NCBI GenBank assembly: GCA_963770975.1
Contig: CAVYRM010000008.1
Coordinates: forward strand, 79,858-143,857
DNA: 64,000 bases
Reading direction: 5' to 3'
Source: an uncultured delta proteobacterium
Lineage (GTDB): Bacteria > Desulfobacterota > Deferrimicrobia > Deferrimicrobiales > Deferrimicrobiaceae
Part shown: piece by piece, positions 5,387 to 64,000 of the stretch
Numbering within the stretch: position 1 is the first letter of the stretch
Layout of the letters: each line of letters opens with the position of its first letter
Notes under the pieces: generated by a model
Databases searched by the model: none
What the model saw: the letters and a program-made list of their open reading frames with translations, nothing else
What the model was told of the DNA's origin: nothing
Translations under genes and position numbers: made by a program

Positions 5387-5413
5387 CTTTTAACCATCGA
5401 TTCGGGAGACCGT

Positions 5414-8682: not shown

Positions 8683-8686
8683 CCCG

Positions 8687-16728: not shown

Positions 16729-16901
16729 GCTGCTGCCCCTCCTGCCGGATATCCCTCCGGTAATCATAACAATGTCATTTCTGTTAATGAGAAAAGAATG
16801 CAGGATGCAGCCCGCATTCCGTCCCGTGGAGGGCAGGGATTCGCCTCGTGATTCTGTTATAGTAGGAAAATTATTTAACTGCCCCTTTGGGAGGTTTACC
16901 G

Positions 16902-34710: not shown

Positions 34711-34726
34711 TGGCATTCTACTTGAA
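34711..34726 (+). promoter_or_regulatory. Candidate sigma-54 promoter (imperfect -12 element).
   Basis: TGGCAT-N5-TTGAA has correct GG spacing, but the -12 element reads GA rather than GC. It lies about 50 nt upstream of ATG 34773. Confidence 0.35.
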
Positions 34727-46428: not shown

Positions 46429-46486
46429 TGCGTCCTTTTCGAATCGCTTTCTGAATCCACATCTGCAGCAGCAGGGAGGAGTCGGC

Positions 46487-47789
46487 ATGCGAAAATTCTG
46501 GACGGTCCTCGGCACGACGCTCTGTTCGGTTGCATTGTCCGCGCTGTTCGTCGGGGTTTCGACGGCGGCGGACACCTGCGTATCGGCCAAGTGCCATGCG
46601 CAGATGGGGAAGGCGCAGTACGTCCACGGCCCGGTCGGCGTGGGGCAGTGCACCGTCTGCCACGTGGAGGCGAAGAAGGGGCACCCCACCGGAAAGAAAC
46701 CCGACTTCAAGCTGGTGGCGACGGGGAAGGCCCTCTGCGAGAAGTGCCACCAGCCGGTGGACAAGTTCGAGTACAAGCACACCCCGGTGAAGAAGGGCGA
46801 TTGCATCGGCTGCCACGACGCGCACCAGTCCGACGCCCCCGAAGCAGCTGAAGAAGAAGAAGACCTCGGAACTTTGCTTCTCCTGCCACAAGAACACCCA
46901 GCAGGTGAAGAAGTTCCAGCACGGCCCGGTCGCCTCCGGGGATTGCAACGTCTGCCACAACCCGCACTCCTCCCCGAACCCGCACCAGCTCGAGGCCAAG
47001 GGGAACGACGTCTGCTTCCTGTGCCACGAGGACCGCAAGGCCGAGTTCACCCGGAAATACCCGCACAAGCCCGCGATGGAGTCGTGCCTCAAGTGCCACG
47101 ACGCGCACAACTCGGACTCACCCGTTCATGCAGACGAAAGAGGGTACGGCCCTGTGCCTCTCGTGCCACAAGAAGATGGACGACCACCTCAAGGGCTCGC
47201 GACGGTTCGCCACGGGGCGCTCGACAAGGGGACGTGCACCACGTGCCACACGCCGCACTCCTCCGACTTCCCGCGGCAGCTCAAGGCGGGCACCAAGGAC
47301 ATCTGCTACACTGCCACAAGGAGATGGGAGCCACGGTGCGGGCGGCGAAGAACCTCCACGGACCGGTGCAGCAGAACGACTGCTACGCCTGCCACGACTC
47401 GCACGGCAGCGAGAACCCGCCAGATCCTCAAGAAGTACTTCCCGAAGGAGTTCTACAAGCCGTACGCCACCGAGAGCTACGCCCTCTGCTTCGACTGCCA
47501 CAACAAGGACATCGCCCTCGACAAGATCACGACGAAGCTGACCAACTTCCGCAACGGCGACGTGAACATGCACTTCCTCCACGTGAACAAGGAGAAGGGG
47601 CGGTCGTGCAAGGCGTGCCACGAGGTCCACGCGGGGAGCCAGGAGAAGCATATCCGCAAGGAGGTGCCGTTCGGCGGGAGCTGGAAGCTGCCGGTCAACT
47701 TCACCAAGACGTCGAACGGCGGGACGTGCGTGGTCGGGTGCCACAAGCCCAAGACCTACGACCGCGTCAATCCGGTGAAGTACGAGTAG
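46487..47789 (+). CDS. Multiheme c-type cytochrome with about 13 CxxCH motifs plus CX4CH and CX3CH variants. At least five frame changes.
   Basis: The signal peptide is MRKFWTVLGTTLCSVALSALFVGVSTA. The motifs I read are CVSAKCH, CTVCH, CEKCH, CIGCH, CFSCH, CNVCH, CFLCH, CLKCH, CLSCH, CTTCH, an interrupted ICY.CH, CYACH, CFDCH, CKACH and CVVGCH. The sense alternates among the ORFs at 46487, 46905 and 47128 and unlisted segments. Confidence 0.7.
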
Positions 47790-47801
47790 GAGGCGGTGGC
47801 G

Positions 47802-48813
47802 ATGGCGCAGACGCACCCTTCGCGGTTCCATCGTCCTGTTCACGGCGCTCACGGCGATCTTCCTCTCCACCGTGCCGGGGGGCGCATCGGCGTTCCGCAA
47901 CATGAAGGAGGGGAGCCCCGCGCTCCCCTTCGCCCTCAAGGATTTCGAGGGGAAGGACGTCGAGTGGAAACCCGATTCCGGGAAGGTGACGGTTCTCTCC
48001 TTCGTCAAGCTCTCCCAGGAGCGGTCGATGGACCAGTTGAAGGACCTCGTCGCGCTCCACAAGGAGCTCTCCGGGAAGGGGATCGACTTCCTCGTCGTCG
48101 CCTCCTACGGGGACACGGCCGCCGAGGCGAAGAAGGCGATCTCGGAGCTCGGGATCGCCTTCCCGATCCTGCACGACAAGGACCAGAAGGTGTACGGCGA
48201 CTACGGCCTCTTCATCCTGCCCGCCACGGGGATCATCGGAAAGGACGGGAAGTTCGCCTTCGAGCACGGGAGCCACGGGCGCGATTTCCGGGACGTGGTC
48301 GGCGGAAAGGCGAAGGTCCTCGCCGGGCTGATGACGGAGGAGGAGTACAAGAAGCTCGTCACCCCGGTGGAATCCGTGAAGAAGAGCAAGGAGGAGGGGG
48401 AGGCGGACCGGCTCATCTCCCTCGGCCGCACGCTCCTCAAGCGCGGAATGCCCGACAAGGCGGCGGAGAAGTTCGCAAAGGCGGTGGAACTCGATCCGAA
48501 GAACCTGGTCGCCCTCCTCGCCTACGGGGAGTCGCTGGTCGCTTCGAAGAAGCTCGACGAGGCGCTCGTCCAGTTCACCAAGGCGAAGGAGATCGCACCG
48601 TCCAGCAAGGAGGCGGCGCTCGGGATCGGCACCGTCCACCTCGAGAAAGGGGAGGTCGACAAGGCGATCCAGGAGATCTCCGACGCGGCGATGCTGAACC
48701 CGAAGCCCGAGAAGGCGTACTTCTGGCTGGGGGCCGCCTACGAGAAGAAGGGCGATCTTCCGAACGCGGTGAAGTATTACAAGAAGGCGGTCGAGAAGAT
48801 CATCAAGGAGTAG
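47802..48813 (+). CDS. Secreted thioredoxin-fold (redoxin) plus TPR fusion that lacks the CxxC active site. One probable frame change sits just after the start codon.
   Basis: The signal peptide is RRRTLRGSIVLFTALTAIFLSTVPGGASA. In the redoxin-like segment ALPFALKDFEGKDV...VLSFVKLSQERSMDQL...GIAFPILHDKD...LPATGIIGKDG, the usual W-C-x-x-C position reads LSQERS. The C-terminal TPR repeats are AAEKFAKAVELDPKN and YFWLGAAYEKKGDLPNAVKYYKKA. Confidence 0.6.
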
Positions 48814-48828
48814 GCGAAAGGTGCCGCG

Positions 48829-49295
48829 ATGAAAAGGTCGCTTCGGGGGGCGCGTTCCCCGAAGGCTGCGATGTTCGTCTTGCTGGCGGGGTGGATCCTC
48901 CACCCCGCCTTTCCCGTTTTCGGCGCCCCCCCGGTGTTCGACAAACCCGGTTACATCTATCATCCCGGACGTGAAGAAGTGCGCGGCGTGCCACCCGAAA
49001 GACCGGAAGGGGTATTCCGTCGCGCGTCCCGTCGACGCGTTGTGCTACCGGTGCCACATAGCGGAAAGACGCGAAAAAGTACGTCCACGGACCGCTGGGG
49101 AGCGGGGAGTGCACGTCGTGCCACGATCCGCACGGTTCGCCGAACCGTGCGCTCGCGGTCGCTTCCCCGGAGGTCCTCTGCCCGACGTGCCACGACCAGG
49201 CGAGCTCCAGGAGGCACATGAAGCAATCCCGGGGGAAGGGGTGCGTCGCCTGCCACGACCCCCACTCGTCCGAAAAGAATTTCCTGTTAAAGTGA
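48829..49295 (+). CDS. Small secreted pentaheme c-type cytochrome, with two frame changes.
   Basis: The signal-like N-terminus is FVLLAGWILHPAFPVFGA. The motifs are CAACH, CYRCH, CTSCH, CPTCH and CVACH. It ends in DPHSSEKNFLLK (stop 49293-49295). Confidence 0.6.
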
Positions 49296-49331: not shown

Positions 49332-50468
49332 ATGCGCGGGAGGGGGGCGTTCGGAAAGATCGCGGCGGTCCTCTTCGTTTTCGCCCTGGGGCTCTACGCC
49401 TCCCCGAAGGCGGCGGCCGCGTTCAAGAACGTCCAGACCGGGGCGGAAGCCCCGGCGTTCAAGCTGGCGGATCTCTCCGGGAACGAGGTCTCCCTCGAAA
49501 CGTTCAAGGGGGACAACGCCGTGATCCTCGTCTTCTGGGCCACCTGGAGCGGGCGCTCCCTCGACGAGCTCCGGGACGTCCAGAAACTCGTCGCCGAGTA
49601 CGGGCCGAAGGGGCTGAAGGCCGTCGCCGTCAACGTGGAACACGAACACACGACCGAGCGACGACCTGCGGATGATCCGGAGAAGGCCGCCTCCCTCAAC
49701 CTCACCTTCCCCGTGCTGCTCGACAAGGGGCTGGACACCTTCCGCAACTACGGCGTGGTGGCGGTTCCCTCCACCGGAACGCTCGGACGCGGGAACGTCC
49801 TCCGCGACGCCTTCAACGGGTACCCCTCTTTCGTCTTCCTCGAGCTGAAGTCGCAGGTCGAGACGCTGCTCGGCATGAAGCCGGTGGAAACCGCCGTCGC
49901 CGCGAAGGCCGACACCTCCCACAAGCCGACCCGCCCGGCGCTGCTCAACTACAACCTGGGCCGGCGGCTCTACGCGTTCGGCATGGCCGACAAGGCCGAA
50001 CCGAAGCTGCGGGCCGCGGCCGCGGCCGACCCGGCGTGGGCGGCGCCCAACGTCCTGCTGGGCGAGGTGCTCCTCTCCCGGTCGAAGAAGGATCCGGGCG
50101 AAGATCGCGGAGGCGAAGAAGGCGTTCGAGTCCGCCGTCGCGTCGGAGGAGGGGAACGTGGTGGCGCGCACCGGATTGGCCCGCGTATACTGGTCCTCCG
50201 GCCAGGCGGCCGACGCGGAGCGGGAGATCGACGCGGCGCTCAAGAGGAACGGGACGTACACGCCGGCCCTCCTGCTCAAGGCCGGCATCCTCGCCCGGAA
50301 GGGGGACGCTCCCCGGTGCGGAAAAGATGATCCGCGAGGCGATCGAGCTGAACGCGCGCGATCCGTCAGACCTACGCGCTCGCCGGCCGGGCCTACGAGG
50401 AGGGGAAGGATCTCGCGAAGGCCGCGGCGATGTACCGCAAGGCGTGGGAACTGAACGGGGAGCACTGA
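49332..50468 (+). CDS. Secreted thioredoxin-fold plus TPR fusion in which both active-site Cys are replaced by Ser (WSGRS). About three frame changes lie in the TPR part.
   Basis: The signal peptide is AAVLFVFALGLYASPKAAAA. The redoxin core APAFKLADLSGNEVSLETFKGDNAVILVFWATWSGRSLDEL...LTFPVLLDKG...VVAVPST reads SGRS where CxxC is expected. The TPR part is LLNYNLGRRLYAFGMADKAE..., VARTGLARVYWSSGQAADAE and ALAGRAYEEGKDLAKAAAMYRKA. Confidence 0.6.
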
Positions 50469-50610
50469 TGCAGCGGGTGCGCCGCCTTCATCGTGACGGC
50501 GGTTTCGGCGGCGTCGATCCTGGCGTACGGCATCTTCCGCGAGGAGATCGGCGAGGTGATGTTCAACGCCGCGATGCTTTGACTGTCGTGCATCGGGGTC
50601 GGGTGACTCC

Positions 50611-51476
50611 TTGGGATACCTGAAGCGCCGGATCTTCCAGGGGATGGGGGCCGTCCTCCCGAACTCCTACGTCCAGGGGTTCCTGACCGCGTCCCTCTAC
50701 CAGGGATCGCTCAAAAGCGTCTGCTCCCCGCTGCTCAACTGCTACGCCTGCCCGTCCGCCCTCTTCTCCTGCCCCATCGGCACGCTCCAGCACTTCATGG
50801 TGACCGGGAACGTCCCGTATTACGGCCTGGGGACCCTCTCCGTGGTCGGCGCCACGGTGGGGCGGATGACGTGCGGGACGCTGTGCCCCTTCGGTTTCCT
50901 GCAGGATCTCCTCTACAAGTTCCGGGCGTGGAAAGTCTCCATCCCCGTCTGGACGCGGTATTTCCGCTACGCGGTCCTGGTCGGGCTCGTCTTCCTCATC
51001 CCGTACCTCACCCACGAGAACTGGTTCTCGAAGCTGTGCCCGATGGGGACGCTGATCGGCGGCCTGCCGTGGGTCACCCTGAACGCCGAACGTCCGCTCG
51101 ATGATCCGCGCGCTGTTCTGGGTCAAGATCGCGATCCTGCTCTTCTTCGTCACCACCTCCACGATGGTGAAGCGCCCGTTCTGCCGCGCCGTCTGCCCGC
51201 TGGGGGCGATCTTCTCCCTGTTCAACAAGTCGAGCTTCCTGCAGCTCGCGTGGAACCCCGACACCTGCACGAAGTGCGGGAAGTGCCAGAAGATCTGCCC
51301 GGTGGACATCCGCCCCGACCGGAACCCGACGAACCCGGACTGCCTGCGGTGCCTCGACTGCACCCGGTGCCCGAGCCTCAAGCTCACCACGGTGTTCCAC
51401 CGGCGCCGTTCGACGCTCCCCGGTATCCCGCCGGTCGAGGCCACCGGGGCGGGCTACCGCAAGATCCGCCGCCTGA
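50611..51476 (+). CDS. NapH/MauN/NosR-type membrane polyferredoxin (4Fe-4S binding). At least two frame changes; the 3' end is uncertain.
   Basis: It has the CX3CP-type motifs LNCYACPSALFSCPIGTLQ, CGTLCPFGFLQD and FCRAVCPLGAIF, then the ferredoxin motifs CTKCGKCQKICP and CLRCLDCTRCP. A TGA at 51474-51476 in a third frame overlaps ATG 51476 (TGATG). That suggests a separate downstream kinase gene. Confidence 0.55.
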
Positions 51477-53003
51477 TGCTGCGGGCGGGTCCGGGCTCTC
51501 CGTTGCGGTTTCTGCCGAGCTCCCTCTTCTACAGGATGTCGCTCACCATCGGCGTCGTGCTGGTGGTCGTCTTCGGGATCTCTTCCTACCTCACCTACCG
51601 GATCCAGTCGGAACAGGCGTTGACCGCCACCAAGACCCAGGCGATCCTGCTCACCCGCGGCTTGAAGAACACGATCCGGATCGGCATGGAGTCCGGCCAC
51701 ACGGAGTCGCTCGCGTCGATCTTCCAGACGGTCGGCGCCTTGCCCGGCGTGGAGAAGCTGCGGGTCTTCAACGAGGAGGGGAAGATCCGGTACTCCGCGA
51801 AACCGGCCGAGGTCGGGCCACCTGACCGACGAGCTCGACTACACGGTGTACCGCAGCCCCGAGCGGAGCACGCCGTTCCAGAGCGAGGTGACCGGCCACC
51901 GGTCCTTCTGCATGGTGGAGCCGATCGAGAACGACGCGAAGTGCCGACGGTGCCACCCGAAGGAGATCGAGGTGCTCGGCGTGCTCGACGTCTGCCTCTC
52001 GATGGAGGACACGGAGAAGAGCATCGCGTTCAACCGCCTCCTCCTCCTCTCCTCCACCGGTCTCGCGCTGATCCTGACGTCGGGAATCATCAGCGTCCTC
52101 CTCAAGCGGTTCGTCTCCCGGCCGGTGGAACGTCTCGTGAAGACGATGGAGTCGGTGGAGGCCGGGAAGCTCGACGGCCGGGTGGACATCCGCAGCGGGG
52201 ACGAGCTGGGGCGCCTCGGGAACAGCTTCAACGAGATGATCCGGAAGCTTGTCGGATGCGCAGGACGAGCTCGAGAAGTTCCACCACAGGCAACTGGCGC
52301 GCGCCGACCGGCTGGCGTCCCTCGGCGAGATGGCGGCGGGGATCGCCCACGAGATCAAGAACCCGCTGGCCGGGATCTACGGCGCCGCCCAGGTCCTCGT
52401 CGACGAATTCCCGGAGGGGGACCCGAAGCGGGAGATCGTCGGGGAGATGATGGTCCTCCTGAAGCGCCTGGACAACACGATCAGGGACCTGCTGAACTTC
52501 GCGCGCTACACGGAGCCGCAATTCACGAAGGGGAACCTGAACGACGTGATCGACAAGGTCCTGTTCCTCGTCCAGCAGATCCCCGAGGGGAAGCGGGCGC
52601 GGATCGTCCGGGAGTTCGACCCCGGGATGCCGGAGATCGAGATGGACCAGGAGCAGGTGAAGCAGGTCTTCCTGAACCTGGCGCTCAACGCCCTCCAGGC
52701 GCGCCCCGACGGGGTGACGCTCACCATCCGCACGCGGGGAGACGTCCCCGCCGAGGGGGGCGACGGTGCGGCACCGCGCCCGCTACGTGATGGCGTCGGT
52801 GTCCGACGACGGCCCGGGGATCCCGCCGGACAAGCTGGGGAAGATCTTCCAGCCGTTCTTCACGACGAAGGAGAACGGCACGGGCCTCGGGCTCTCGATG
52901 ACCCGGAAGATCCTCGACCTGCACGAGGGAAGGATCACGGCGGAGAGCGAGGCCGGGAGGCGGCGCGACCTTCACCGTGTTCCTGCCGAAGGTGAAGCCG
53001 TGA
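51476..53003 (+). CDS. Sensor histidine kinase whose periplasmic domain carries a CxxCH heme-c motif (2TM, HAMP, HisKA, HATPase). About four frame changes.
   Basis: TM1 is [19 protein letters not shown]. The periplasmic segment ends in [31 protein letters not shown]2 is [22 protein letters not shown]. The HAMP segment is [41 protein letters not shown]. The H-box is [15 protein letters not shown], the N-box [10 protein letters not shown], and the G-boxes DDGPGI and GTGLGLS. The stop is at 53001-53003. Confidence 0.7.
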
Positions 53004-53075: not shown

Positions 53076-54541
53076 ATGGCGCGATCGAGGATCCTCGTGG
53101 TGGACGACGAGCGGATGATCCGCTGGTCGATCCAGCAGACCCTTTCGAAGGACGGCCACGTCCGTGGCCGCCGTGGAGACGGGCGAGGAGGCGGTGGCGC
53201 AGGCGACCGACGAGATGCCCGACCTCGTCTTCCTCGACATCACCCTCCCGGGGATCGACGGCATCGAGGTGCTCCGGCGCCTCAAGGCCCTGGACCCGTC
53301 CGTCGCCGTCGTGATGGTCACCGCCACCGACGACCTGAAGACCGCCGTCGAGGCGATGCGCCTGGGCGCCTACGACTACGTCAGCAAGCCGTTCGACCTC
53401 GACCGCCTGCGGGTGATCGCCCAGAACGCGCTCGACCGTCACGAGTTGCGCCAGGAGGTCGAGTTCCACCGGAAGGAGTCGGTGAAGCGGTACGGGTTCC
53501 ACCGGATCGTCGGTTCGAGCCGGAAACTCGCGGAAGTGGTCGAGGTGGCGAGGAAGGTGGCGAAATCGGACGCCGCGACCGTGCTGCTCCAGGGGGAGAG
53601 CGGCGTCGGGGAAGGACCTGTTCGCCCAGGCGATCCATTACGAGAGCGCCCGCGCCACGCGGCCCGTTCATCCCGATCAACTGCACCGCCCTGCCCGAGG
53701 AACTGCTCGAATCCGAGCTGATGGGGCACGAGAAAGGCGCCTTCACGGACGCGAAGTTCGCGAAGAAGGGGCTCTTCGAGGTGGCCGACGGCGGGACGAT
53801 CTTCCTCGACGAGATCGGCGACATGAAGCCCGGCCTCCAGGCGAAGCTCCTGCGCTTCATCGAGAACAAGGTCTTCCGCCGGGTCGGCGGGCACCGGGAC
53901 ATCTCCGTCGACGTCCGCATCGTGGCGGCGACGAACCGGAACCTCGACGAGCTCGTCCGCACGGGGCGAGTTCCGGGAAGACCTCTTCTTCCGGCTGAAC
54001 GTGATCCCGATCCGCATCCCGCCCCTGCGGGAGCGCCGCGAGGACATCCTGCCCCTGGCGGAGCATTTCTTCTCCGAGTTTTCCAACGACATCCGGAGGC
54101 CCGGGAGCGGTTTCTCGGACCTCGCGAAGCGCCAGATGACGGCGTACGACTGGCCGGGGAATGTCCGCGAGATGCGGAATATCATCGAGCGCGCGCTGAT
54201 CCTCGGCGCGGCGGGCATCGTGGAGCGCCTCGACCTCCCCGTGCCGACCGGGGCGCCGGAGCGTCCCGGGCGTCCCTGGCCGGACCGGCTCCTCCCCGAA
54301 CCGGCCCGGGTGGGGAGCCGATTCGCATCCCCGGGGATCGGAGCCCTCATCCGGCGGCGCCGGCCGGAGCGGACACGGATTCCGCCTCCCGCCCTCCGGG
54401 ATCGTGCTCGAGGACCTCGAACGGGACCTCCTGCTCCAGGCGCTGGAGACGACCCAGGGGAACCAGACGAAAGCGGCGGAGATGCTCGGCCTCACCCGGG
54501 ACGCCCTCCGGTACCGGATGAAGAAATTCGGCTTCCTGTAA
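53076..54541 (+). CDS. Sigma-54-dependent response regulator (NtrC family), with at least five frame changes.
   Basis: It has the receiver [12 protein letters not shown]...[14 protein letters not shown]...YDYVSKPFD, the AAA+ core [11 protein letters not shown]...[15 protein letters not shown]...[12 protein letters not shown]...[11 protein letters not shown]...[19 protein letters not shown], and the [29 protein letters not shown] (stop 54539-54541). Confidence 0.8.
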
Positions 54542-54599
54542 TCGCTCGTCTGATCGCTCGTCCCCGGACAAGTGGGGGATATCCCCCTCCACCGTATAA

Positions 54600-54671: not shown

Positions 54672-54687
54672 TGGCATCAAACATGCT
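54672..54687 (+). promoter_or_regulatory. Near-consensus sigma-54 (-24/-12) promoter for the FN3/NHL-cytochrome operon.
   Basis: TGGCAT-CAAAC-ATGCT has exact GG-N10-GC spacing. It lies 20 nt upstream of a strong ribosome-binding site (AGGAGGGGG) and ATG 54707, immediately downstream of a sigma-54 activator gene. Confidence 0.6.
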
Positions 54688-54706: not shown

Positions 54707-56365
54707 ATGGGAACCGTCATGTGCGTTAAATCACGCAGAACAGGAGGCGCGAACGTGAACCAGAGGGGGATTTCGAAAGTGAAAAACGTGTCGAAGTATG
54801 CTACGGCGTGCGTGCTGGCATTGGCGATGTTCGCGGCTGCGGGAAGCGGCGGCGGCCGCTCTTGCCGGCGCCCAACTGGATGCCGGGTTCTCCGATCATG
54901 GCGGGGACCCAGGTCATCCTGCTCTGGCTGCCCATCCCGAACGCCGTGAAATACAACATCTACCTCAACGGGAAGAAGATCGGTGAATCCCCCGCGGTGC
55001 AGTACATGATGGCCTCTCCGACCGAGTCCGGGAGAATATTCGATCCTGATCGCGGCTGTGGATGCCGCCGGGGCGGAGGGTGCGAAGTCGGCCCCCGGCG
55101 TCATCCGGATCGTGACGGTGAATCCCCCCGCCTCGGTCTACGGCCGGGTAATGGAGAACAAGGTCCAACTCAAGTGGGACCAGGCCAAAGGCGCCGTAAT
55201 CTACAACGTGTACCGGGCCGACAAGGAGACGGGGGAGGCCAAGCTCCTCTCCTCGGTCCAGAGCGACGCCTATACCGATTCGGCGGTTCAGCAGGGGAAG
55301 GCGTACTTCTACTCCGTCACCGCGAAAGACCTCGCGGGGAAAGAAAGCGCCAAATCGAAACCATACCGCATCGAGGTCCCCCTGCCGCAGTCCGCCGCAG
55401 TGAAGGAGGCCAAGGTCGAGATCAAGGTCGTCGCGACGAACCCCGTGGCGGAGAGCCTCTTCCTCGGATCGAAAAAGATCGAGATGTTCGGCGACATGAA
55501 GCCCGGCCCGGACGGCCACATCTATGTGCTCGACGCCGGCCAGAGGCAGGTCCTGAAACTCGAACCCAAATCCCTCGAAGTCGTCTCGGTCTTCCCCTCC
55601 ACGCCGGAGGAGAAGGAGAAGATGAGACGCCCCCTCTCCATCGGATTTACCTCCGACGGGCGGGCCTTCATCGTGGACCCATTCGCCCGGAAGGTTTTCG
55701 TTTTCGACGCCGCCGGGAAGATGGTGTCCGAATTCCCGGTCCCCGCGCCGACCGACAAGGAGGTCGTCCAGAACGTCCTGCCGCACCTCCGGGACCAGGG
55801 GATTTTCCCGTCCGGGATCCATGTGGACGAGAAGGAGAAGACGATCTGGATCACCGACCCCCGGTTCAACACGATCTACCGGTTCGACCTCGACGGGAAA
55901 TTCCTCGGGAACCTGGGGCACGGAGGGGACCCCGAACAGTACTTCGCCGGGCCGGGCGAAATCCTTGCGGACCGCAACGGCACCGACCTCTACGTCACGG
56001 AGCCTCTGGCCCACATCGTCCTGGTGATCGACCGGAATAACGGCAAGATCAAGCGGATGATCGGGAGGAAGGCGTCGGGCTTCATCGGGGGCTTCATCGG
56101 TCAATCGGGGATTACCTACGACCCGGAAGGAAACGTGGTGATCTCCGACGCCGGGGTCCATTCGATCCAGGTCTTCGACGGAAAGACGGGGGCGTACCTC
56201 TACCACTTCGGGGACGAGTCCGGAAAAGTGGATCCGAAGATGACGGAGCGGGCGCTCCTGGGAATCGAGATGCCGAACCGGGCGTTCGTCCGCGGGAACA
56301 TGCTCTACATCTTCCGGGCCGACAAGATGAACGTCGTCTCCCGGGAAATCGTGAAGAAGAAGTAG
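54707..56365 (+). CDS. Secreted protein with two fibronectin-III-like domains and a C-terminal NHL-repeat beta-propeller. About three frame changes lie in the first 350 nt.
   Basis: The signal-like N-terminus is YATACVLALAMFAAAGS. The FN3-like segments are ILLWLPIPNAVKYNIYLNGKKIGES and VQLKWDQAKGAVIYNVYRADKETGE...YFYSVTAKDLAGKES. The NHL-like repeats are DGHIYVLDAGQRQVLKL, SDGRAFIVDPFARKVFVFD, KTIWITDPRFNTIYRFD, GTDLYVTEPLAHIVLVID and EGNVVISDAGVHSIQVFD. Confidence 0.7.
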
Positions 56366-56477
56366 AAGACACATGATACGGAAAGGAGGGATGGCGAGAA
56401 GTTGGAGCGTTTCACCGGTACCGTATGATGATCCGTCTGGCCGATCAATTCGCAGGTCCATTCACAAGGAGGAAAGG

Positions 56478-58903
56478 ATGAGAAACCGTTACTTGCTCCT
56501 CGCAGCCCTTATCGGGGTCTTCGCGCTCGCCGCGGGCCCGCCTTCGCGGGGGTCCAAGGCACAGCCCACCAGACGTACGGTCGGGTCGCAGGGCGTCTGT
56601 TCCGCCTGCCACATCCCGCACGGCGGCCAGGGGGGCACAGGGACCCGACTCTGGCCGATCGCCGCGACGACCACGGCTACATCACCCACCGTCCTCGTCG
56701 GCACCGTGTCCACCCTCTGCGCATCGTGCCACCTCGCCGGCAGCGCCTACAACACTTCGATGGGCTCTGCGTTCTCCCCGCAACGCGCTTACCATCAAGA
56801 CGGCCACGGGGGCAAGATGACGGTCGCCAACATTACCAGTGGCGGCCTGGGATCGAGCAGCATGGCCACCTCGGGGCTGCCGTACATCGCGAACACCACG
56901 CTGGAGTGCACCAGCTGCCATAACGTGCACGACGACACGAACCGTCCGTTCCTCCGTGCGGAGATGGACGCCCTCTGCTCCTACTGCCACAGCAACCGGA
57001 TGTTCAAGGCGTCGGTAGAGAACTCCGGAAACGGCGCCACGAAGGGCGCCTGGGGCATCACGTACGTCGGCGGTGCGAACCCCGGTTCCCACCCCGTGGG
57101 GACCGACATCACCGGCAACGTCTCCGGCGGGCCCTCCCCCATCACGCTGGCGGGGAACTTCATCCTCCCGAAGACGAGCGCGTCGGGGACATGGTCCCTC
57201 GGCGGCCACCTGTCGGACAACAACGGCACCGGCAACTCCCTCAACGGCGTGACGTGCAACACCTGCCACGCGGTTCACGGGATCGAAGTGGATGGCGTCG
57301 CCGGCGGAAGCGTCCCGGTCACCAATTTCCTTGTGGTTGCGCAAAGCACGGGGACCAACGAAGGGGTCACCGGGCACTCGATCGCCAGCGGCGACGGCAG
57401 CGCGGGGAACGACCTCTGCGAGGCGTGCCACACCGGACCCGCTCCCGCAGGATACGGCGGATCCCGGAGAGTAAACCCCGGAGACAACGTCTCCACCCAC
57501 CCGGTGGACGACTACGCGTCCCAGAACGAACTGGTGGGGGATTTCAGAGCCGCCACCGGGACGTTGAACTGGCCCGCTTCCTCCACGGCGTCCGGAACGG
57601 GGAACGCCGCCATCTGCGAGTCGTGCCACACCCCGCACCCGCGGGCCAACATCGGCCGCGCCACCATCAAATTCGCTTCGGGGACGACGATCACCCCGTA
57701 CATCCTCCGCAACACGGCGGCACTCATCTGCAGCGACTGCCACAGCCCCAGCGGGGCTACGTTCGGGACGCACCACCCGGTCGGGACCGGCGGGGGCGGG
57801 ACGTCATGGGCGTCGGCCAAGTCGGGCGCCGCCAGCTACTTGCCCGGGATCACCACCGAGCTGTTGTGCAGCACCTGCCACGGCGGCGGGGGCGCGGGCG
57901 GGGCCCATAACTGGACGGGCCGCTCCTGGGTCGGCATGGTTCCCGGTTGGAAACCTGTGAACAACGCCCGGGTGGCGGGCACCGGGTACCGGTATGCCGC
58001 CTCCCCGAACCCCGTAACGACGCAGGACATCTCCTCCACCTGCATCGACTGCCACCTCGACCTCGACGGGACGACGACGAACACGTCTCCGACGAAGCAT
58101 AACGGGACGGCTACCGGGACGCGATCGACCAAGCACAGTACACGAACCTCGGCACGGGAAGCCACTTCATCGGCCCGCTCGATAACGTCAGTTGGTTCAC
58201 CAACCGGGCGATCCCGACGTCCACCAACCGCGGGTCGACCACGAACTTCAATGCAGCCACCGACAACTGGACGTCGGCCATTTTCGGAACAGGGAATGCG
58301 AACGGCGGCATCTCACGGTTCGGCGGGACCGCCTCCGCTCCGATCCTGGTGTGCGAGTCGTGCCACAACCTGGTGCCGTCCAGGAACGTGGGGCCGCATA
58401 TGCTCCTGGCCGGGTTCTATGAAGGGCAATCGACCCAATCCGGCACCCAATACGATACGTTATGCGAGGGGTGCCACGGCGTTCCGACCGGAACGCATCA
58501 GCAGAGCGCGGATCTTGTCGGCCGCACGAATGCGTTATTGGACACCTCGGCAGGATCTACCACCCGCACCTGGATCAGAACAAGCGCTCCCGCGGGCGTT
58601 CCTGTCGGCGGGGTTGCGGGCACATCCACCTGGTTAACCGGTGTCGCCGGAACCGGACAGCTGTCGTGCGACTCGTGCCACCAGGTCCACGACGCGAACA
58701 CGCTGGGCGCCTCCCTGATCATCGAGGCCCCGGCCGGCAACGTCACGGGCGGCACGCCGGCGACCGTCGTCGTCAGCGGGACACCGACGTACTACGGCGG
58801 GACCAACCCGATCAATTACCGCCTGAAGGGGCAGGCTCCGACCAAAGGCACGATGCCGGACGTCTCGATGTTCTGCGATCAATGCCACACCTACCGGCAG
58901 TAG
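56478..58903 (+). CDS. Large (about 808 aa) secreted Thr/Gly/Ser-rich c-type cytochrome with 14 widely spaced CxxCH motifs. One frame change near 58105.
   Basis: The ribosome-binding site is AAGGAGGA. The signal peptide is MRNRYLLLAALIGVFALAAG. The motifs are CSACH, CASCH, CTSCH, CSYCH, CNTCH, CEACH, CESCH, CSDCH, CSTCH, CIDCH, CESCH, CEGCH, CDSCH and CDQCH. There are about 18 additional His, including recurrent (S/T)HPV. After KHNG the sense continues in the frame of the 58349 ORF as GYRDAIDQAQYTNLG. Confidence 0.75.
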
Positions 58904-58921
58904 CCGAATAGGCGTATCATC

Positions 58922-58958
58922 AACGGCAGGGGGAGGGTATCGCCCTCCCCCTGCCGTT
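58922..58958 (+). terminator. Perfect 16-bp GC-rich hairpin after the large cytochrome gene (a terminator or processing/attenuation structure; no clear T-tail).
   Basis: AACGGCAGGGGGAGGG-TATCG-CCCTCCCCCTGCCGTT. Confidence 0.45.
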
Positions 58959-58986
58959 ATCACACATTCAATCCCAGGGGGGGGGT

Positions 58987-59535
58987 ATGATGAGAAAAGG
59001 CATCCTGCTATACCTGTTGATCGTGTTCGGGGTGGTCCTGTTGACGGTTCCCGCGTCTTTCGCCGCCGAAGAGAAGGCCGCGCCGGCCGAGGCGCCGAAG
59101 ATCCCGGGTGTGGGCGACATGGCGCCGGCGTTCTCCCTCCCCTCGCTGGACGGCAAGACCGTCACCACGAAGGATATCGCGGGAGGGAAGCCGGTTTCCG
59201 TCGTCATCTTCATGAGTACGGCGTGCTCGGCCTGCCAGACGGAGATCGCCGCCGTGGACCAGATCCTCAGCAAATACGGCGATAAGGTCGACATGTTCCT
59301 CATCGCCGTCGACGCCCGCGGGGCGGAGACGGTGAAACCGTTCTCGGATACGTTCAAGTACAAGGCCACGTACCTCCTCGACACGAAGTTCACGGTGCCC
59401 CGGATGTTCGGGTTCTCCGCCACTCCGTCGGTGATCGTGCTCGACAAGGCGGGGAAGATCCTGCTGAAGAAGGCCGGATACCAGGTCGGCGACGCGGAGG
59501 AGATCCAGGAGGCCGCGATCAAGTTCACGAAGTAG
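58987..59535 (+). CDS. Secreted TlpA/ResA-like thioredoxin (CSAC).
   Basis: It is intact. The signal peptide is KGILLYLLIVFGVVLLTVPASFA. The core is APAFSLPSLDGKTV...VVIFMSTACSACQTE...FLIAVDARG...SATPSVIVLDKAG. Confidence 0.75.
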   Translation: MMRKGILLYLLIVFGVVLLTVPASFAAEEKAAPAEAPKIPGVGDMAPAFSLPSLDGKTVTTKDIAGGKPVSVVIFMSTACSACQTEIAAVDQILSKYGDKVDMFLIAVDARGAETVKPFSDTFKYKATYLLDTKFTVPRMFGFSATPSVIVLDKAGKILLKKAGYQVGDAEEIQEAAIKFTK

Positions 59536-59557
59536 GCAGGAGCGTTCCGTCGGATCA

Positions 59558-59597
59558 GGGGGAAGGTCGTGGGGAACCCGGCCTTCCCCCGATTTTT
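59558..59597 (+). terminator. Rho-independent terminator-like hairpin.
   Basis: GGGGGAAGG...CCTTCCCCC followed by GATTTTT. Confidence 0.5.
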
Positions 59598-59612
59598 CCC
59601 GGGAGGGGAGAC

Positions 59613-61286
59613 ATGAGAAGACACATCGCCGCATCGCTGGCTGCGTTGTTCGTCTGGACGGCGGCGGCAGGCCCCGCCGATACGGCCTTCGGGGCGACCT
59701 CTGCGGCGAAAAAAGACGGGGGGAAGGCGACCGTTGCCCCCGACGTGGTGGCGGTGATCGACGGCGTCCCGCTGAAGGTTTCGAGCCTCGGCCTGGTGCG
59801 GCTCCTGGGGTTTTCCGGCAAACACGGCGAGCCCGTCGCGAAGGCGGACCTGCTGGACAAGCTCGTGGAGGTGGAGCTCGTCGTCCGTTACGCGGAAGGG
59901 AAAGACCTCCCCACCCCCGGGAAGGGGAAGGAACTCCTCGCCCTGTTCCGCGAGACCACCCTCGGGATGGAGTACGCCGAGGAGATGAAGCGGACCGTCC
60001 GGTTCGACGCATCGGAAATCCGGGACCGGCTCCCGCTGAAGTGGAAAGTGGCGAGCTTCGAGGTCGTCCTGTACGACACGCTCGACGAGGCGAAGGCCGA
60101 CGCGGCTTCGGTGAAAACCGTTGAGGAGTTCGAGGCCCTGAAGGCGAAATATCCGGACCGTGCCAAGGCGTTCGACAACCTCTACCCGAAATCCGGCTTC
60201 TTCAACGAGTACGACGACATCGCCATCTTTAACCGGGAATCCGCCGGAGTATACGGGGTGGGGGAGACCGGGATCGGGCCAGGGATCCTCCGGATCCGGG
60301 AGATCCGGGAGCCCGCGGAGGCCGAAAAGGAGGGACTCCTCCGGAAAGCAACCGCGACGTTGGCGGAAGTCCAGTTCTCAAGGGAGGCGGACCGTTTACG
60401 GCAGGATACGCCGCGCCGTATCGACAGGAAGGCCCTCCTGCGATACGTGGAGTCCGTCCGCTCCGGAGGACCGGTGGACATCCCGGTGGCGACCATCGGG
60501 GAGTGGACGATCACCAGCGGATTGGTCCGCAATTTTGTGGTAAACGAGCCGGTGAATTTCATGAGGGCGTCGAAAATCGAGGAGGTTGCGGGCGCCTACG
60601 TCGATATCCTGAACCGCCTGGCGGACACTCTCGCTTTTGCGGCCGAGGCCAGAAAGCAAGGTCACGACGACATCCGGTCCGACCAGTACGGGAATTCGTA
60701 CCGCAGCTTCCGGAAGAAGCTTCTGTACACGGCAGGGCTGGAAGACGGCGTCGGTCCCGTCGCCGCGTCGGACAACGAAGTCCGGGAATATTACGAGGCG
60801 AATCGGAAGACGAGGTTCACCCCGGCAGAACGCGTGGAGGCGGCCCACATCTTCTCGAAAGAAAAGAAGAAAGTGGATAAGGCGCTCAAGCGGATCAAGG
60901 CGGGGGAGAGCTTCGAGGAAGTGGCGAAAGAGGTGTCCGAGGATTCCCGGTCCGCCTCCAGGGGCGGAGCGATCGGGTGGATTCTGAAGGACGGGAAAGT
61001 GCTCCCGGAGTTCGAGGAGCAGGCATTCAAACTGAAGGGGAAGCCGGGGGCGGTTTCCCCCGTATTCAAGACCACAAATGGATACCATGTCCTGAAGGTA
61101 ATCAGTTACCACCCGGAGAAGGAGATCCCTTTCGAAAAGGCGGAGCCGATAGTGCGGAGAGACCTGGAGAATGCCCGGTTCGAGGCCGGGAAGAAGGCGT
61201 TCCTTGAAGGGCTGCGGAAGAATGCGACCGTCACGACATACCCGGAGAACGTGCCGGACGCCCCGGCGAAAGCGAGCCACCGATGA
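59613..61286 (+). CDS. Periplasmic SurA/PrsA-like chaperone with a PpiC-type (parvulin) PPIase domain.
   Basis: It is intact at 557 aa. The signal peptide is RRHIAASLAALFVWTAAAGPADTAFG. The parvulin core is RVEAAHIFSKEKK...GESFEEVAKEVSEDSRSASRGGAIGWI...VSPVFKTTNGYHVLKV. Confidence 0.75.
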   Translation: MRRHIAASLAALFVWTAAAGPADTAFGATSAAKKDGGKATVAPDVVAVIDGVPLKVSSLGLVRLLGFSGKHGEPVAKADLLDKLVEVELVVRYAEGKDLPTPGKGKELLALFRETTLGMEYAEEMKRTVRFDASEIRDRLPLKWKVASFEVVLYDTLDEAKADAASVKTVEEFEALKAKYPDRAKAFDNLYPKSGFFNEYDDIAIFNRESAGVYGVGETGIGPGILRIREIREPAEAEKEGLLRKATATLAEVQFSREADRLRQDTPRRIDRKALLRYVESVRSGGPVDIPVATIGEWTITSGLVRNFVVNEPVNFMRASKIEEVAGAYVDILNRLADTLAFAAEARKQGHDDIRSDQYGNSYRSFRKKLLYTAGLEDGVGPVAASDNEVREYYEANRKTRFTPAERVEAAHIFSKEKKKVDKALKRIKAGESFEEVAKEVSEDSRSASRGGAIGWILKDGKVLPEFEEQAFKLKGKPGAVSPVFKTTNGYHVLKVISYHPEKEIPFEKAEPIVRRDLENARFEAGKKAFLEGLRKNATVTTYPENVPDAPAKASHR

Positions 61287-61834
61287 GCGGAAAGGAAAGA
61301 TCGATGCCCGGGTTCGTCGTTCGGATCCCGTTCGTCCTGGCGTTCCTGATCCTCGCCGCCGGCGCGTCGTTCGCCGACCCGGCGGGGAAAGGGGTAAAGG
61401 CCGGACAGGCCGCACCCTCCTTCTCCGGCGTTTCGACCGCGGGAACCCCGGTGGATTCGAAAGATCTCCTGTCGAAGAACCGGGCGGTCCTCGTCGCTTT
61501 CTGGGGGATCCGATGCGCCGCGTGCATCGATGAAGTCCCGGCGCTTCGAAAGATCCAGGGCGAGTTTCCGGAAGGCACCCTCCAGGTGGTGGGAGTGAAC
61601 ACGGACGGCGTGGACGCCCCCACGCTTTCGGCCATGATGGAGGAAGAGAAGATCGCCATGAATTACATCGTCCTGACCGACCCCGGGTTCAAGGTCGTCG
61701 ATTCGTTCGGGATGACCGCGGCTCCTCTCACGATTCTCATCGACCGGGAAGGGAAGGTTCGTTATGTCCACCAGGATTACAAACCGGGGGATGAAATCGA
61801 ATTGCGCGGAAAGATCCTCGAAGCGGTCAAATAA
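61283..61834 (+). CDS. Secreted TlpA-like thioredoxin (CAAC).
   Basis: It is intact. The core is AAPSFSGVSTAGTPV...VLVAFWGIRCAACIDEVP...VVGVNTDG...TAAPLTILIDREG. The start overlaps the upstream stop. Confidence 0.75.
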   Translation: MSGKERSMPGFVVRIPFVLAFLILAAGASFADPAGKGVKAGQAAPSFSGVSTAGTPVDSKDLLSKNRAVLVAFWGIRCAACIDEVPALRKIQGEFPEGTLQVVGVNTDGVDAPTLSAMMEEEKIAMNYIVLTDPGFKVVDSFGMTAAPLTILIDREGKVRYVHQDYKPGDEIELRGKILEAVK

Positions 61835-61871
61835 TCCCTTGTCCTTCGCGAGGAACTCCGATTTCCATGGT

Positions 61872-63030
61872 TTGTCGCGATGCCGGGTCTTGCTGTTCCG
61901 GGGGATCGTATCCGTTTCCCTGCTCATTGCATCCCTCATGCTGGGGAAAATCCTTCAAGCCTCGGCGGGAGTCCCTGCGTATATCGGCTCCGAAAAATGC
62001 GCCTCCTGCCACCAGATCCAGTACAAGGGGTGGGTCAAGACGTTCCACAGCACCGTGGTGGGGGATGCGAAGAAGGACCCCTCGGTGATCATGGCCGACA
62101 TGTCCGACCCCGATCTGCCGTTCAAGAAGGAGGATATCCACTACACGATCGGCGGCCACTGGGACCAGCGGTACCTGACGAAGATCGGCGACGACTATTA
62201 CATCCTTCCCCGTCTCTGGTCCGTGCAGAGCAGCAAGTGGCGCCCCTACAGCACCTACGGCTGGCAGAAGCGCCCCTACTCGAAATATTGCATCGGCTGC
62301 CACTCCGTCGGCTTCGACCCGAAGACGCGCGGGGTCGTGGAGCACTCCGTCGGGTGCGAGTCGTGCCACGGCGCCGGAGTCGCCCACTCGGCGAAACCGA
62401 GCAGGGAGAACATCGTCAACCCGAAGCGGCTTTCCGAGGACAGGTCGGAGGAGATCTGCGCCTCCTGCCACGTGCGCGGGAAGGACCTTTCCGGGGAATA
62501 CTTCTTCCAGCTCGGGTGGAAGCCCGGGGACGACCTCGCGAAGTACTATGTTCCGCTCGACAAGAACGAGGGGGAGAGCAACGACGACGCCATCCACCGC
62601 CTCTGGGACCAAGTGGAGATCCGACCGGGAGTCGCAGTCCCGCTCCCGGTGCGAGGTGTGCGGCATCCACCAGAACGTGAAACCCCAGGGGGAGAAGATC
62701 AGCGTCGACGCCATCTGCATGAGCTGCCACGAGTACGACGAGAAGCAGCTTTCCCTGCACACCCGCCACAAGACGCTTGCGAGCGTCGGCTGCACGGATT
62801 GCCACGAGGAGAAAGAACCGGACCTGAATGAAAACCGCGAGAACAACGTCCATTCCTACGGCTACTTCCTGATCCACCCGCAAGGGTGCTGGGACGACAA
62901 GATCCACAACCGGTGCGGGAAATGCCACGCTGACAAGCCGAAGAAATGGGCTTATGATACGGTGTTGAGGTTGGAAAAAACCGGTCGTGATCGACCACTG
63001 ATATCTTCACTCTCCTCGGGGGCAGGGTGA
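61872..63030 (+). CDS. Multiheme c-type cytochrome of the cytochrome c554-like family (7 CxxCH plus one CxxCGxH). One frame change near 62600; both ends are uncertain.
   Basis: The signal-like N-terminus is RVLLFRGIVSVSLLIASLMLGKILQASA. It has CASCH followed by QYKGWVKTFH and IGGHWDQRYL, then CIGCH, CESCH, CASCH, CEVCGIH, CMSCH, CTDCH and CGKCH. An A-run near 62975 could place the true stop at about 63000. Confidence 0.6.
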
Positions 63031-63591
63031 TGAGAACCGCTTTCAGGATGGCACCGGTACTTCTGTGCATGGTGTTCGCGTTGGGGCTTGGAGCGTCGCC
63101 CGCCCTGGCCGCGGGCGACACCGCGATGCGCTTGAAGATCGGCGAAAAAGCTCCGGATTTTCGCCTCAAGGACGTGATGACCGGGAAGACGGTCACCCTC
63201 TCCGAGTTCGCGGGGAAAAAGGTCGTCATGCTCGAGTTCTGGGCGACCTGGTGCGACATCTGCAAGCGGGAGATGCCCAACCTCGTCAAGTTGCACACAC
63301 GCGTGGGGGCCCAAGGGGTTCGAGCTCCTCTCCATCGTGCTCCCGTCGGGGAACATCGCCGACGTGAAGAAGATCATCACGGAAAAGAAGCTGACCTACC
63401 CCGCGCTGCTCGACGCCGACCTGTCGGTGGCGACGAAGCTCTACGGGCTCGCCGGCCCCATTCCGCTCAAGGTCGTGATCGACCACAAGGGGATCATTCG
63501 CTACTCCCACGTGGGGGATTACCCGCCGGGCGAGGACGAGTTGCCGTTCGTCCTCGAGGACCTCGTGAAGGAGATGGGGAAGGGAAAATGA
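63027..63591 (+). CDS. Secreted TlpA-like thioredoxin (CDIC), with one frame change near 63305.
   Basis: The signal peptide is MAPVLLCMVFALGLGASPALA. The core is APDFRLKDVMTGKTV...VVMLEFWATWCDICKREMP, then (in the 63337 frame) FELLSIVLPSGN...YPALLDADL...IPLKVVIDHKG. Confidence 0.7.
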
Positions 63592-64000
63592 CGCGGCGTT
63601 TCCTGCCCCTGCTTGTCGTCCTGCTCGTCTCGATCGCCTACCCGGCCCTCGTCCGCGGAACGGTCGGTCAAGGTGGGGCAGACGGTCCCGGAATTCTCCC
63701 TCCCCGGGCTGGACGGGGAGACCAGTCTCCTTCCACAAGGACATCCGCGGGAAGGCCCCGCTCACGGTGCTCTTCTTCATGACCACGGCGTGTTCCGCCT
63801 GCTACGAGGAGACTCCGGGAGATCCACGAGTTCGCCTCGAAGCACCCGGGCAAGATCGAAACCTGGGCCGTCGCGGTCGACCTTCGCGGGGCGCAGACGG
63901 TGGGTCCCTACCAGCAGTCGAACCGGTTCCGCGTGAAATACCTGATCGACCCGAAATTCTCCCTTCCCCGGGTCTTCGGATTCCACTACACCCCGTCCCT
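63588..64000 (+). CDS. Secreted TlpA-like thioredoxin (CSAC), 3' partial, with about two frame changes.
   Basis: The signal peptide is RRFLPLLVVLLVSIAYPALV. Then VGQTVPEFSLPGLDGE..., PLTVLFFMTTACSACYEE and WAVAVDLRGAQTV...YLIDPKFSLPRVFGFHYTPS. It resembles the 58987-59535 protein. Confidence 0.6.

Follow-up and report, generated by a model that had tools for sequence, protein, structure and literature searches.

A 14-heme OmcE-family cytochrome gene and its neighbours in an uncultured Deferrimicrobiaceae bacterium, and their probable kinship with the Geobacter omcE locus

What would a bacterium make with a row of genes for a very long, heme-sparse cytochrome, a secreted propeller, a peptidyl-prolyl isomerase (PPIase), a second multiheme cytochrome and four thioredoxin-like proteins? 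Such a row of eight + strand genes, delineated by open reading frame (ORF) and domain analysis, occupies ~54.7-64.0 kb, downstream of a sigma-54-type promoter, in a 64,000-nucleotide stretch (the window; coordinates are positions in it unless a relative's locus is named) of contig CAVYRM010000008.1, assembly GCA_963770975.1, from an uncultured delta proteobacterium of the Deferrimicrobiaceae. A sequence-only reading had set out these eight consecutive same-strand genes, their content, their CXXC motifs and the 14 hemes of the long cytochrome, all of which are present where and as it described them. It had also known of no characterised system with this composition, and in this it has to be revised, the cytochrome being of the OmcE family and the locus collinear with the Geobacter omcE nanowire locus. 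From the comparisons below, homology and synteny with the omcE system are highly probable; that the row forms the central part of a larger locus, at least 20 kb long and running from 44230 to past 64000, which shares ancestry with the Geobacter omcE locus and makes an OmcE-type wire, is on balance probable. Cytochrome nanowires are structurally known from few organisms, and their folding, export and anchoring are unsolved (PMC12307469; 10.1101/2025.10.22.684050).

The 14-heme cytochrome and its relation to OmcE

After stitching, the cytochrome gene (g2, 56478-58903, + strand, with shifts of frame at ~56541, ~56575 and ~58110, the pair at ~56541-56575 being compensating) encodes ~810 amino acids (aa) with exactly 14 CXXCH motifs, or ~58 aa per heme. 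Gly, Thr and Ser make up 14.6%, 12.7% and 9.5% of this protein, CYT14, and the composition, extreme in Gly/Thr/Ser/Asn with Lys plus Glu at ~3%, is OmcE-like. The ‘sparse heme’, Thr/Gly-rich look is normal for wire subunits of OmcE/OmcS type. Full-length homologues number ~100, all from metagenomes or metagenome-assembled genomes (MAGs), with an exhaustive profile search returning 267 cluster representatives at E < 1e-30. There are 14 CXXCH motifs in 77 of 85 family members, the length being 745-830 aa, and the family therefore does not fit the form of a tetraheme protein of ~230 aa; the chain ends 2-4 residues past the last CXXCH in 74 of the 85. Every one of the 14 CXXCH is invariant in an alignment of 46 members, in which 15 other His are also conserved, one above the bis-His need of 14 hemes. 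‘HPV’ motifs at H205, H341 and H433 of the alignment echo the DHPV of OmcE.

The profile of the 46 members, run against PDB sequences with hmmsearch, matches OmcE (7TFS) at E 1.6e-16, covering OmcE 1-231, and a second deposited OmcE-like chain, 9YUQ_N, at E 5e-13; the C-terminus, with its last two hemes, also matches OmcS (6EF8) weakly, at E 6.7e-6. With hhalign, 120 OmcE homologues align to the CYT14 family at 99.3% (E 6.7e-21, OmcE 1-231 on residues 1-172), and further OmcE matches, at 92-96%, fall on residues 139-319, 259-422, 379-526 and 514-669. Because these matches are staggered by two hemes, and an internal repeat relates residues 40-172 to 259-423 (96%, E 3e-9), CYT14 consists of reiterated OmcE-type units. 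From the signal peptide through the fourth heme, with none of the eight axial His missing, the protein aligns end to end with OmcE, the equivalents of the OmcE distal His H31, H48, H110 and H151 being conserved along with the four motif His, and the remaining ten hemes repeat the OmcE-like unit with a two-heme period. As in OmcE and OmcS, the chain stops 2-4 residues past its last CXXCH; a conserved His lies 4-7 residues past the signal-peptide cut. Likeness to OmcE itself extends over the whole of that protein, with its eight heme-ligand His kept and a CXXCH at the very C-terminus.

On these alignments CYT14 can be assigned to the OmcE family, with a marked difference of scale, 14 hemes in ~800 aa as against 4 hemes in 232 aa for Geobacter OmcE. 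One survey reports OmcE-like proteins of comparable length with four and with five hemes (10.1101/2025.10.22.684050), and in a limited literature search no description of a 14-heme OmcE form was found. Giant proteins of 1000-2400 aa with 7-14 matches to the N-terminal unit were not counted as family members, since at ~42 aa per heme they may share only the paired-CXXCH motif.

The wider locus and its counterpart in Geobacter

The Geobacter omcE locus (L080 among the loci compared, for which such handles are used) reads purHDE, a c7 cytochrome, ResB, ResC, the multiheme cytochromes MHC370 and MHC330, the NHL lipoprotein NHL361, OmcE, a 752-aa protein, a GT2 glycosyltransferase and a 500-aa protein. 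In both this and the window locus, ResB, ResC, two multiheme cytochromes, an NHL propeller and an OmcE-type subunit follow in that order, so that the window has the two multiheme cytochromes after resB/ccsB and upstream of the subunit by which an omcE cluster is recognised. By pairwise BLAST, MHC370 matches cyt432 of L005 (36%, 1e-73), MHC330 matches the cyt310 of relatives, which the window lacks (28%, 1.5e-24), NHL361 matches both the window's propeller (25.5%, E 1e-11) and its intact orthologue in L002 (26%, E 6e-13), OmcE matches CYT14 (28%, 5e-10) and the 500-aa protein matches TPR652 of L001 (30%, 5e-6). In Geobacter, as in relatives of the window locus, glycosyltransferase genes and a polytopic membrane protein bearing TPRs lie downstream.

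The upstream part of the window locus, also on the + strand, opens with ResB of System II cytochrome c biogenesis (44230-45592, frameshifted into two overlapping ORFs with Pfam ResB matches of 2e-56 and 3e-48) and the heme-handling membrane protein ResC/CcsA (45534-46454, Cytochrom_C_asm 1.6e-9), placed as in the omcE locus directly upstream of a homologous cytochrome. The latter, cyt432 (46487-47905, frameshifted), is 71% identical by tblastn to the 432-aa cytochrome of L005, before which a ResC/CcsA gene also stands. There follow a fusion of a thioredoxin fold and TPRs without CXXC (47796-48974, 71% identical to its L002 orthologue; Pfam AhpC-TSA plus TPR families including TPR_CcmH_CycH), the C-terminal part of cyt232, a multiheme cytochrome of small size (48965-49292, tblastn 58-69% to a 232-aa Paired_CXXCH protein of L002), and a second, frameshifted, fusion of the same kind (49332-50330, 62-65% identical to a 376-aa L002 orthologue). 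In the orthologues neither fusion has a CXXC, and these redox-dead folds joined to CcmH/CycH-like TPRs are possibly apocytochrome-binding chaperones. A conserved single-helix membrane peptide of 38 aa (50484-50579, 84% identical to an L002 ORF, also present in L001 and L005), reading MKWRP..GIFREEIGEVMFNAAML in L002, lies, at 82-84% identity, in several loci just upstream of a gene for a NapH-like polyferredoxin membrane protein. This candidate quinol dehydrogenase (50611-51440, frameshifted) is 87-88% identical to an L002 orthologue with Pfam Fer4_5 and Fer4_7 matches, and its CX3CP motif is visible in window ORF 51101. A HAMP-HisKA-HATPase sensor histidine kinase (51503-52960, 70-83% to the L002 kinase) and an NtrC-type sigma-54-dependent response regulator (53076-54540, by tblastn to the L002 regulator; orthologues with Response_reg, Sigma54_activat and HTH_8), both frameshifted, complete this part. 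A unit of 54707-64000, as first delimited, stands as the core, with the locus itself beginning at ResB/ResC (44230) and in relatives running past the window end.

Frame breaks, which had been predicted, are borne out in g1 (two), g2 (three), g6 (one), g7 (one) and g8 (three), mostly at G/C homopolymers. The indel rate at homopolymers is ~1/kb, and every gene checked in the window is affected. Since the ResB, kinase and regulator genes upstream are broken in the same way, and every gene is intact in the closest relative (L081/L082, cytochrome 66% identical), the breaks are ascribed to sequencing or assembly error and not to decay or pseudogenes. Homopolymer indels at ~1/kb are typical of unpolished long-read assembly, and genes called from ORFs on this contig will come out in pieces.

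The propeller gene, g1 (+ strand, to 56365, shifts at ~54856 and ~55032), may start at ATG 54708, which has a strong Shine-Dalgarno sequence and an in-frame extension kept in L020 and L082, or at GTG 54779. Its secreted product carries two FN3/Ig-like domains and an NHL beta-propeller (Pfam NHL 1.2e-9, with SGL propeller matches also), behind a signal of signal peptidase I type without a lipobox Cys. Of the FN3-FN3-NHL build proposed for it, the NHL part is firm; the second N-terminal domain is above the fn3 cut-off only in the L005 orthologue (28.5 bits, as against a sub-threshold 19 bits in the window), and the first is weakly FN3/Ig-like. The subunit is thus accompanied by one propeller copy with two extra FN3-like domains and no lipid anchor, where the omcE cluster has two lipoproteins. 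Gained relative to the omcE locus are the four TlpA-like proteins, the two Cys-less thioredoxin-TPR fusions, a PrsA/SurA-like PPIase and two OcwA-like cytochromes, as well as the NapH-like polyferredoxin with its 38-aa partner and the locus's own kinase, sigma-54 activator and promoter. The hosts, unlike Geobacter, belong to uncultured lineages outside Desulfuromonadia.

Conservation of gene order in relatives, a check that had been called for, was found in many uncultured bacteria and across phyla, in keeping with the module character first ascribed to the row. The complete order runs kinase, activator, propeller, cytochrome, TlpA, PPIase, TlpA, c554-like, TlpA, TlpA, second c554-like, a membrane protein of 630-650 aa and GT2; it is kept in full in L001, L002, L005, L020 and L081/L082, whose cytochromes are 32-66% identical to the window's. 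A core of propeller, cytochrome, TlpA and usually PPIase, sometimes in tandem pairs, is present in MAGs labelled Deltaproteobacteria, Deferrisomatales, Acidobacteria, Rokuibacteriota and Poribacteria, and the sole Gemmatimonadota contig, L011, which is short, has only cytochrome and TlpA. That the row is a chance neighbourhood of separately transcribed, unrelated genes, with general maturation factors lying near cytochromes, might be argued from the common, housekeeping type of the TlpA and PPIase genes and from the two strong hairpins that interrupt the row (below), which in L005 and L006 look like canonical terminators. It is contradicted by the synteny, the order recurring in numerous unrelated MAGs of several phyla where protein identity is 32-66%, and the start/stop overlaps within the row and the want of promoter space after the hairpins also tell against it, leaving it only a very slight chance.

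Past the window end, relatives have a second OcwA-like cytochrome, the polytopic membrane protein of 630-650 aa and GT2. The membrane protein is helical and not a beta-barrel, its 630-aa form has no Pfam, NCBIfam or PDB sequence match, and it could be taken for a glycosyltransferase from context only. GT2 follows it in L002 and L081, with DUF2304 after that in L081; PMT_2/TMTC-like TPR proteins are present in L006 and L015. The combination of GT2, DUF2304 and a polytopic membrane protein resembles a set for periplasmic glycosylation from lipid-linked sugars, as in Gtr/Arn/PMT-type systems. OmcE is heavily glycosylated, and GT2, GT4 and GT39 genes follow omcE clusters (10.1101/2022.07.17.500359; 10.1101/2025.10.22.684050). 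Two barrel-sized ORFs after the cytochrome, of 750 aa in L015 and 559 aa in L013, were rejected as antisense artefacts of a minus-strand cytochrome gene. Genes of FGE-sulfatase (formylglycine-generating-enzyme-like) type, absent from the window, lie beside cytochrome genes in L006 (16637-17476) and L015 (18857-19864).

Promoter, hairpins and transcript structure

The promoter candidate TGGCATcaaacATGCT (54672-54687, +) reads TGGCAT-N5-ATGCT, with 2 mismatches to TGGCAC-N5-TTGCW, and is directly 3′ of the NtrC-type regulator gene and 5′ of g1. Two-mismatch sites are no rarity in the window (11 observed, 14 expected), and TGGCATcaaacATGCT alone is not above chance. The earlier claim of a sigma-54 promoter is nevertheless upheld by conservation: a GG-N10-GC element is present in the regulator-to-propeller intergenic region of all ten loci inspected, the consensus is perfect in L006 and L026, and the L082 sequence is identical to the window's. 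The sequences accordingly place a sigma-54 promoter, with its kinase and activator encoded alongside, ahead of the genes for propeller and cytochrome. Some 100 bp farther upstream is a 14-nt palindrome, GGGGGATATCCCCC (54573-54586), read by eye, its arms being too short for the repeat search to report. Similar elements at approximately the same distance from the promoter in L001 (GGGATATCACCC), L020 (GGGGGATTTCCCCC) and L082 (GGGGGATTTCCCGC) make it a candidate enhancer site for the activator.

Both hairpins noted earlier are real. That after g2 (58922-58958, +) has a 17-bp GC-rich stem (z = -5.4) and a poor U-tract; that after g3 (59553-59594, +, z = -3.3) is terminator-like, with U5, and lies 13-18 nt 5′ of the g4 start. 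A stable hairpin is present 3′ of the cytochrome gene in seven of the eight spacers examined (window, L001, L002, L005, L006, L020, L082), the L013 spacer being the one without, and a hairpin after the first TlpA gene is present in six loci (window, L001, L002 weakly, L005, L006, L082). The sequences vary between loci while the position is kept, with canonical U-tracts in some relatives; the hairpins of L005 and L006 resemble canonical terminators, and the post-cytochrome hairpin of L005 has a U-tract. From hairpin end to the next start codon there are only 13-30 nt, which leaves no room for a promoter and so favours attenuation over independent units. Start and stop overlap by four bases at g4/g5, g6/g7 and g7/g8. 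The single operon first proposed fits these overlaps and the promoterless gaps, and a single uniform transcript stays unproven because of the conserved strong hairpins after the cytochrome and first TlpA genes. Most simply, a single sigma-54 transcript would carry both hairpins as attenuating or stabilising elements, enriching messenger RNA for propeller and cytochrome.

An Rfam scan of 44-64 kb gave no credible match. A motif TGTGC(G/C)..AAAT(T)CAC..GCA occurs 40-130 nt 3′ of the sigma-54 promoter in four loci (window 54720-54740, L020 ~8318-8340, L006 ~8185-8207, L026 ~4357-4380), and the window has no other + strand AAAT(T)CAC. As it falls, in the window, L020 and L082, inside the conserved in-frame N-terminal extension of g1 (M-x-T-x-MCV-x-SR..GGANV), the motif (TGTGCGTTAAATCACGCA) may be coding and not an RNA element. 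Elsewhere in the window, a second, intact pair of histidine kinase and sigma-54 activator (31746-34561) shows 29% and 39% identity to the L002 counterparts of the pair beside g1, with a two-mismatch sigma-54-like site near it at 34711-34726.

Helpers, the destination of the wire and what it would mean

Between them, the six remaining genes of the row, all on the + strand, would supply redox, folding and electron-transfer functions to the cytochrome. Three of the four TlpA-like genes are g3 (58987-59535, TlpA/ResA-like thiol-disulfide oxidoreductase, motif TACSAC, Pfam AhpC-TSA and Redoxin), g5 (61283-61834, WGIRCAAC, start overlapping the g4 stop) and g7 (63027-63591, WATWCDIC, shift at ~63303, start overlapping the g6 stop); the fourth, g8 (63588-64000, TACSAC), has three shifts and is cut by the window end. 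Their CXXC motifs are conserved position-specifically. The best NCBIfam match of all four is ResA, at 29-82 bits against a cut-off of 170, and they are accordingly described as ResA-like and not as equivalogs. The intact g4 (59613-61286) encodes a periplasmic PrsA/SurA-like parvulin PPIase chaperone of 557 aa (Pfam Rotamase 1e-18; among PDB sequences PrsA at 6.6e-17, also SurA). The cytochrome g6 (~61872-63030, start approximate, shift at ~62612; Pfam Cytochrome_C554) has 7 CXXCH and an eighth motif, ‘CEVCG’, which is taken as genuine because an intact orthologue carries it, and it matches OcwA (6I5B, 5.7e-14, OcwA residues 14-319; also 6QVM) among PDB sequences. Profile searches with hidden Markov models, a check advised earlier, have thus found Pfam domains (NHL, Rotamase, AhpC-TSA/Redoxin, Cytochrome_C554), with none of the products reaching any curated NCBIfam cut-off.

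The System II pattern of cytochrome c maturation is present, ResB and Cytochrom_C_asm being above cut-off and accompanied by ResA-like CXXC proteins, and the maturation roles of ResB/ResC, TlpA and PPIase would follow from what is known of these families. In the proposed sequence of events the kinase would sense a signal and the activator fire the sigma-54 promoter, giving propeller and cytochrome transcripts in excess and attenuated read-through into the helper genes. The apocytochrome would be exported by Sec, its 28 heme-binding Cys kept reduced by the TlpA/ResA-like proteins; ResB/ResC would attach the hemes, and the PrsA/SurA-like PPIase would fold a Pro/Gly-rich chain that is almost structure-free. 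GT2, DUF2304 and the polytopic membrane protein, encoded past the window end, might glycosylate the Thr/Ser-rich surface in the periplasm, and the propeller could act as scaffold or morphology factor. The product would be a linear OmcE-type chain of 14 hemes, ~11-12 nm long as estimated from published rises, serving alone or polymerised head to tail as an extracytoplasmic wire; electrons would reach it from the quinol pool via the NapH-like protein and via multiheme cytochromes, both those encoded upstream and the OcwA-like pair. We infer filament formation, export, glycosylation, polymerisation and the scaffold role of the propeller from gene content and homology. A further step, that the 14-heme protein is a ‘pre-concatenated’ OmcE-type segment joined head to tail through its N-terminal His and C-terminal heme into glycosylated extracellular filaments by a barrel-free route, is tentative and on the doubtful side.

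Other known systems offer partial parallels. In the omcS-companion (osc) operon, folding is reportedly assigned to OscH, secretion to OscEFG and morphology to OscD (PMC13194489; PMC12977616). There too a wire subunit is encoded with helpers, to which g4 and g1 can be likened by function only; no OscEFG-like channel is seen in the window locus, and OmcS has six hemes. OscH reportedly contains a prolyl isomerase, and OscD is said to be propeller-like, a parallel to the PPIase and propeller of the row. The uet cluster of Ca. Tenderia electrophaga and Gallionella encodes tetraheme and 11-heme extracellular cytochromes (10.1101/2022.05.06.490989; PMC9900912). Likened by gene content, it shares with the window locus multiheme cytochromes, a peptidylprolyl isomerase, NHL proteins (two), System II CcsA/CcsB and a TPR protein; unlike it, uet has the 28-strand beta-barrel UetC, triheme c7 proteins and a cupredoxin, and no TlpA set. 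OcwA of Thermincola potens (6I5B) and cytochrome c554 resemble g6 and its paralogue past the window end, OcwA having 9 hemes in 526 aa as against 7-8 hemes in ~385-400 aa. OcwA belongs with NrfA and the octaheme-reductase enzymes.

Several points weigh against an extracellular OmcE-type wire, the absence of a barrel being the main unexplained one. A large barrel counts as a hallmark of omcE/omcS regions (10.1101/2025.10.22.684050), and tblastn with the 752-aa barrel of Geobacter finds no homologue in the window or among the 82 loci fetched. The earlier remark that no outer-membrane porin is visible holds. The outer membrane would nonetheless have to be crossed, as genes for lipopolysaccharide heptosyltransferases adjoin the locus in relatives. 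The propeller has no lipobox while its Geobacter counterpart has one, the cytochrome gene stands alone in two loci (L004 and L007), and the U-tract hairpins of some relatives could be full terminators. The AlphaFold2 model of the heme-less cytochrome monomer is poor (predicted local distance difference test, pLDDT, 64), and a Foldseek search of the PDB with that model put OmcS and OmcE on top at non-significant E values of 0.7 and 1.3.

The missing barrel keeps open a periplasmic respiratory module, in which the 14-heme protein would be a long monomeric periplasmic wire or electron store between the NapH-like quinol dehydrogenase and either an unlinked outer-membrane conduit or the two OcwA/NrfA-like cytochromes, as terminal enzymes that reduce or oxidise a soluble substrate. 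In its favour, neither a secretion channel nor a porin is encoded in the conserved locus; TlpA, PPIase and propeller all carry Sec signal peptides of ordinary type, and these helpers would do their work in the periplasm; g6 and its paralogue have relatives in OcwA and c554; and the 15 conserved non-motif His would let a monomer satisfy all 14 hemes. This alternative is nevertheless rather unlikely, the homologues of subunit and locus being a filament protein of the cell exterior and that protein's locus, while the extreme composition and linked glycosylation genes suit a surface or extracellular protein better and the terminal features common to OmcE and OmcS are conserved. An ordinary porin-cytochrome conduit of MtrCAB/Pcc type, with the porin encoded elsewhere and the cluster supplying only cytochrome parts and maturation, is improbable. 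It draws on the second cytochrome cluster of the window (~3.7-9.6 kb, with a PPIase-like fragment and an NHL protein) and on the NHL proteins that accompany outer-membrane cytochromes in Desulfovibrio ferrophilus (PMC5815863) and uet (10.1101/2022.05.06.490989); there is, however, no porin or barrel in the conserved locus and no beta-barrel family among the window ORFs scanned, 810 aa at ~58 aa per heme is unlike the heme-dense MtrA-type inserts, and the protein has its homologue in OmcE and in neither MtrA nor MtrC.

Some features elsewhere in the window have a similar theme. The second cytochrome cluster (3697-9585) includes, at 3697-5460, a badly frameshifted, mostly out-of-frame ORF that contains a PPIase-like stretch. 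Its other members are a cytochrome of 651 aa bearing ten paired-CXXCH domains (5457-7412), a further one of multiheme type (7409-8317) and, at 8687-9331, a protein with NHL repeats. At 13034-14845, in a stretch of lower GC (0.556), an intact gene encodes a polytopic membrane protein of 603 aa with its TPRs at the C-terminus. It is 27% identical to TPR652 of L001, which in the Geobacter omcE locus is matched by the membrane/TPR protein of 500 aa. An L015 protein of 613 aa and similar build has a PMT_2 match, and the 603-aa protein is a candidate protein O-glycosyltransferase. On the - strand, 15928-16767 encodes a c7-type multiheme cytochrome (Cytochrome_C7 9e-23), of a kind typical of Geobacter-like periplasmic carriers.

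With the kinship to OmcE, the locus is less unprecedented than first held, and the OmcE design is seen extended into a conserved 14-heme polypeptide, with family members in soil, groundwater and sediment lineages that have no cultured electroactive members. Its recurrent company of propeller and thioredoxin-like protein, usually with a PPIase and without a barrel, amounts to an experiment of nature that can tell which accessory parts are needed to make such wires, and yields a compact set of candidate genes for producing them heterologously. Propeller, 14-heme OmcE-type protein and TlpA together may serve as a metagenome marker for extracellular electron transfer potential. If the reading of head-to-tail, ‘pre-concatenated’ filaments made without the barrel is true, the family would represent a fourth structural class of bacterial cytochrome nanowire with a different assembly route, and the propeller/TlpA/PPIase tool-kit would be common to uncultured Deltaproteobacteria, Acidobacteria, Rokuibacteriota, Poribacteria and possibly Gemmatimonadota.

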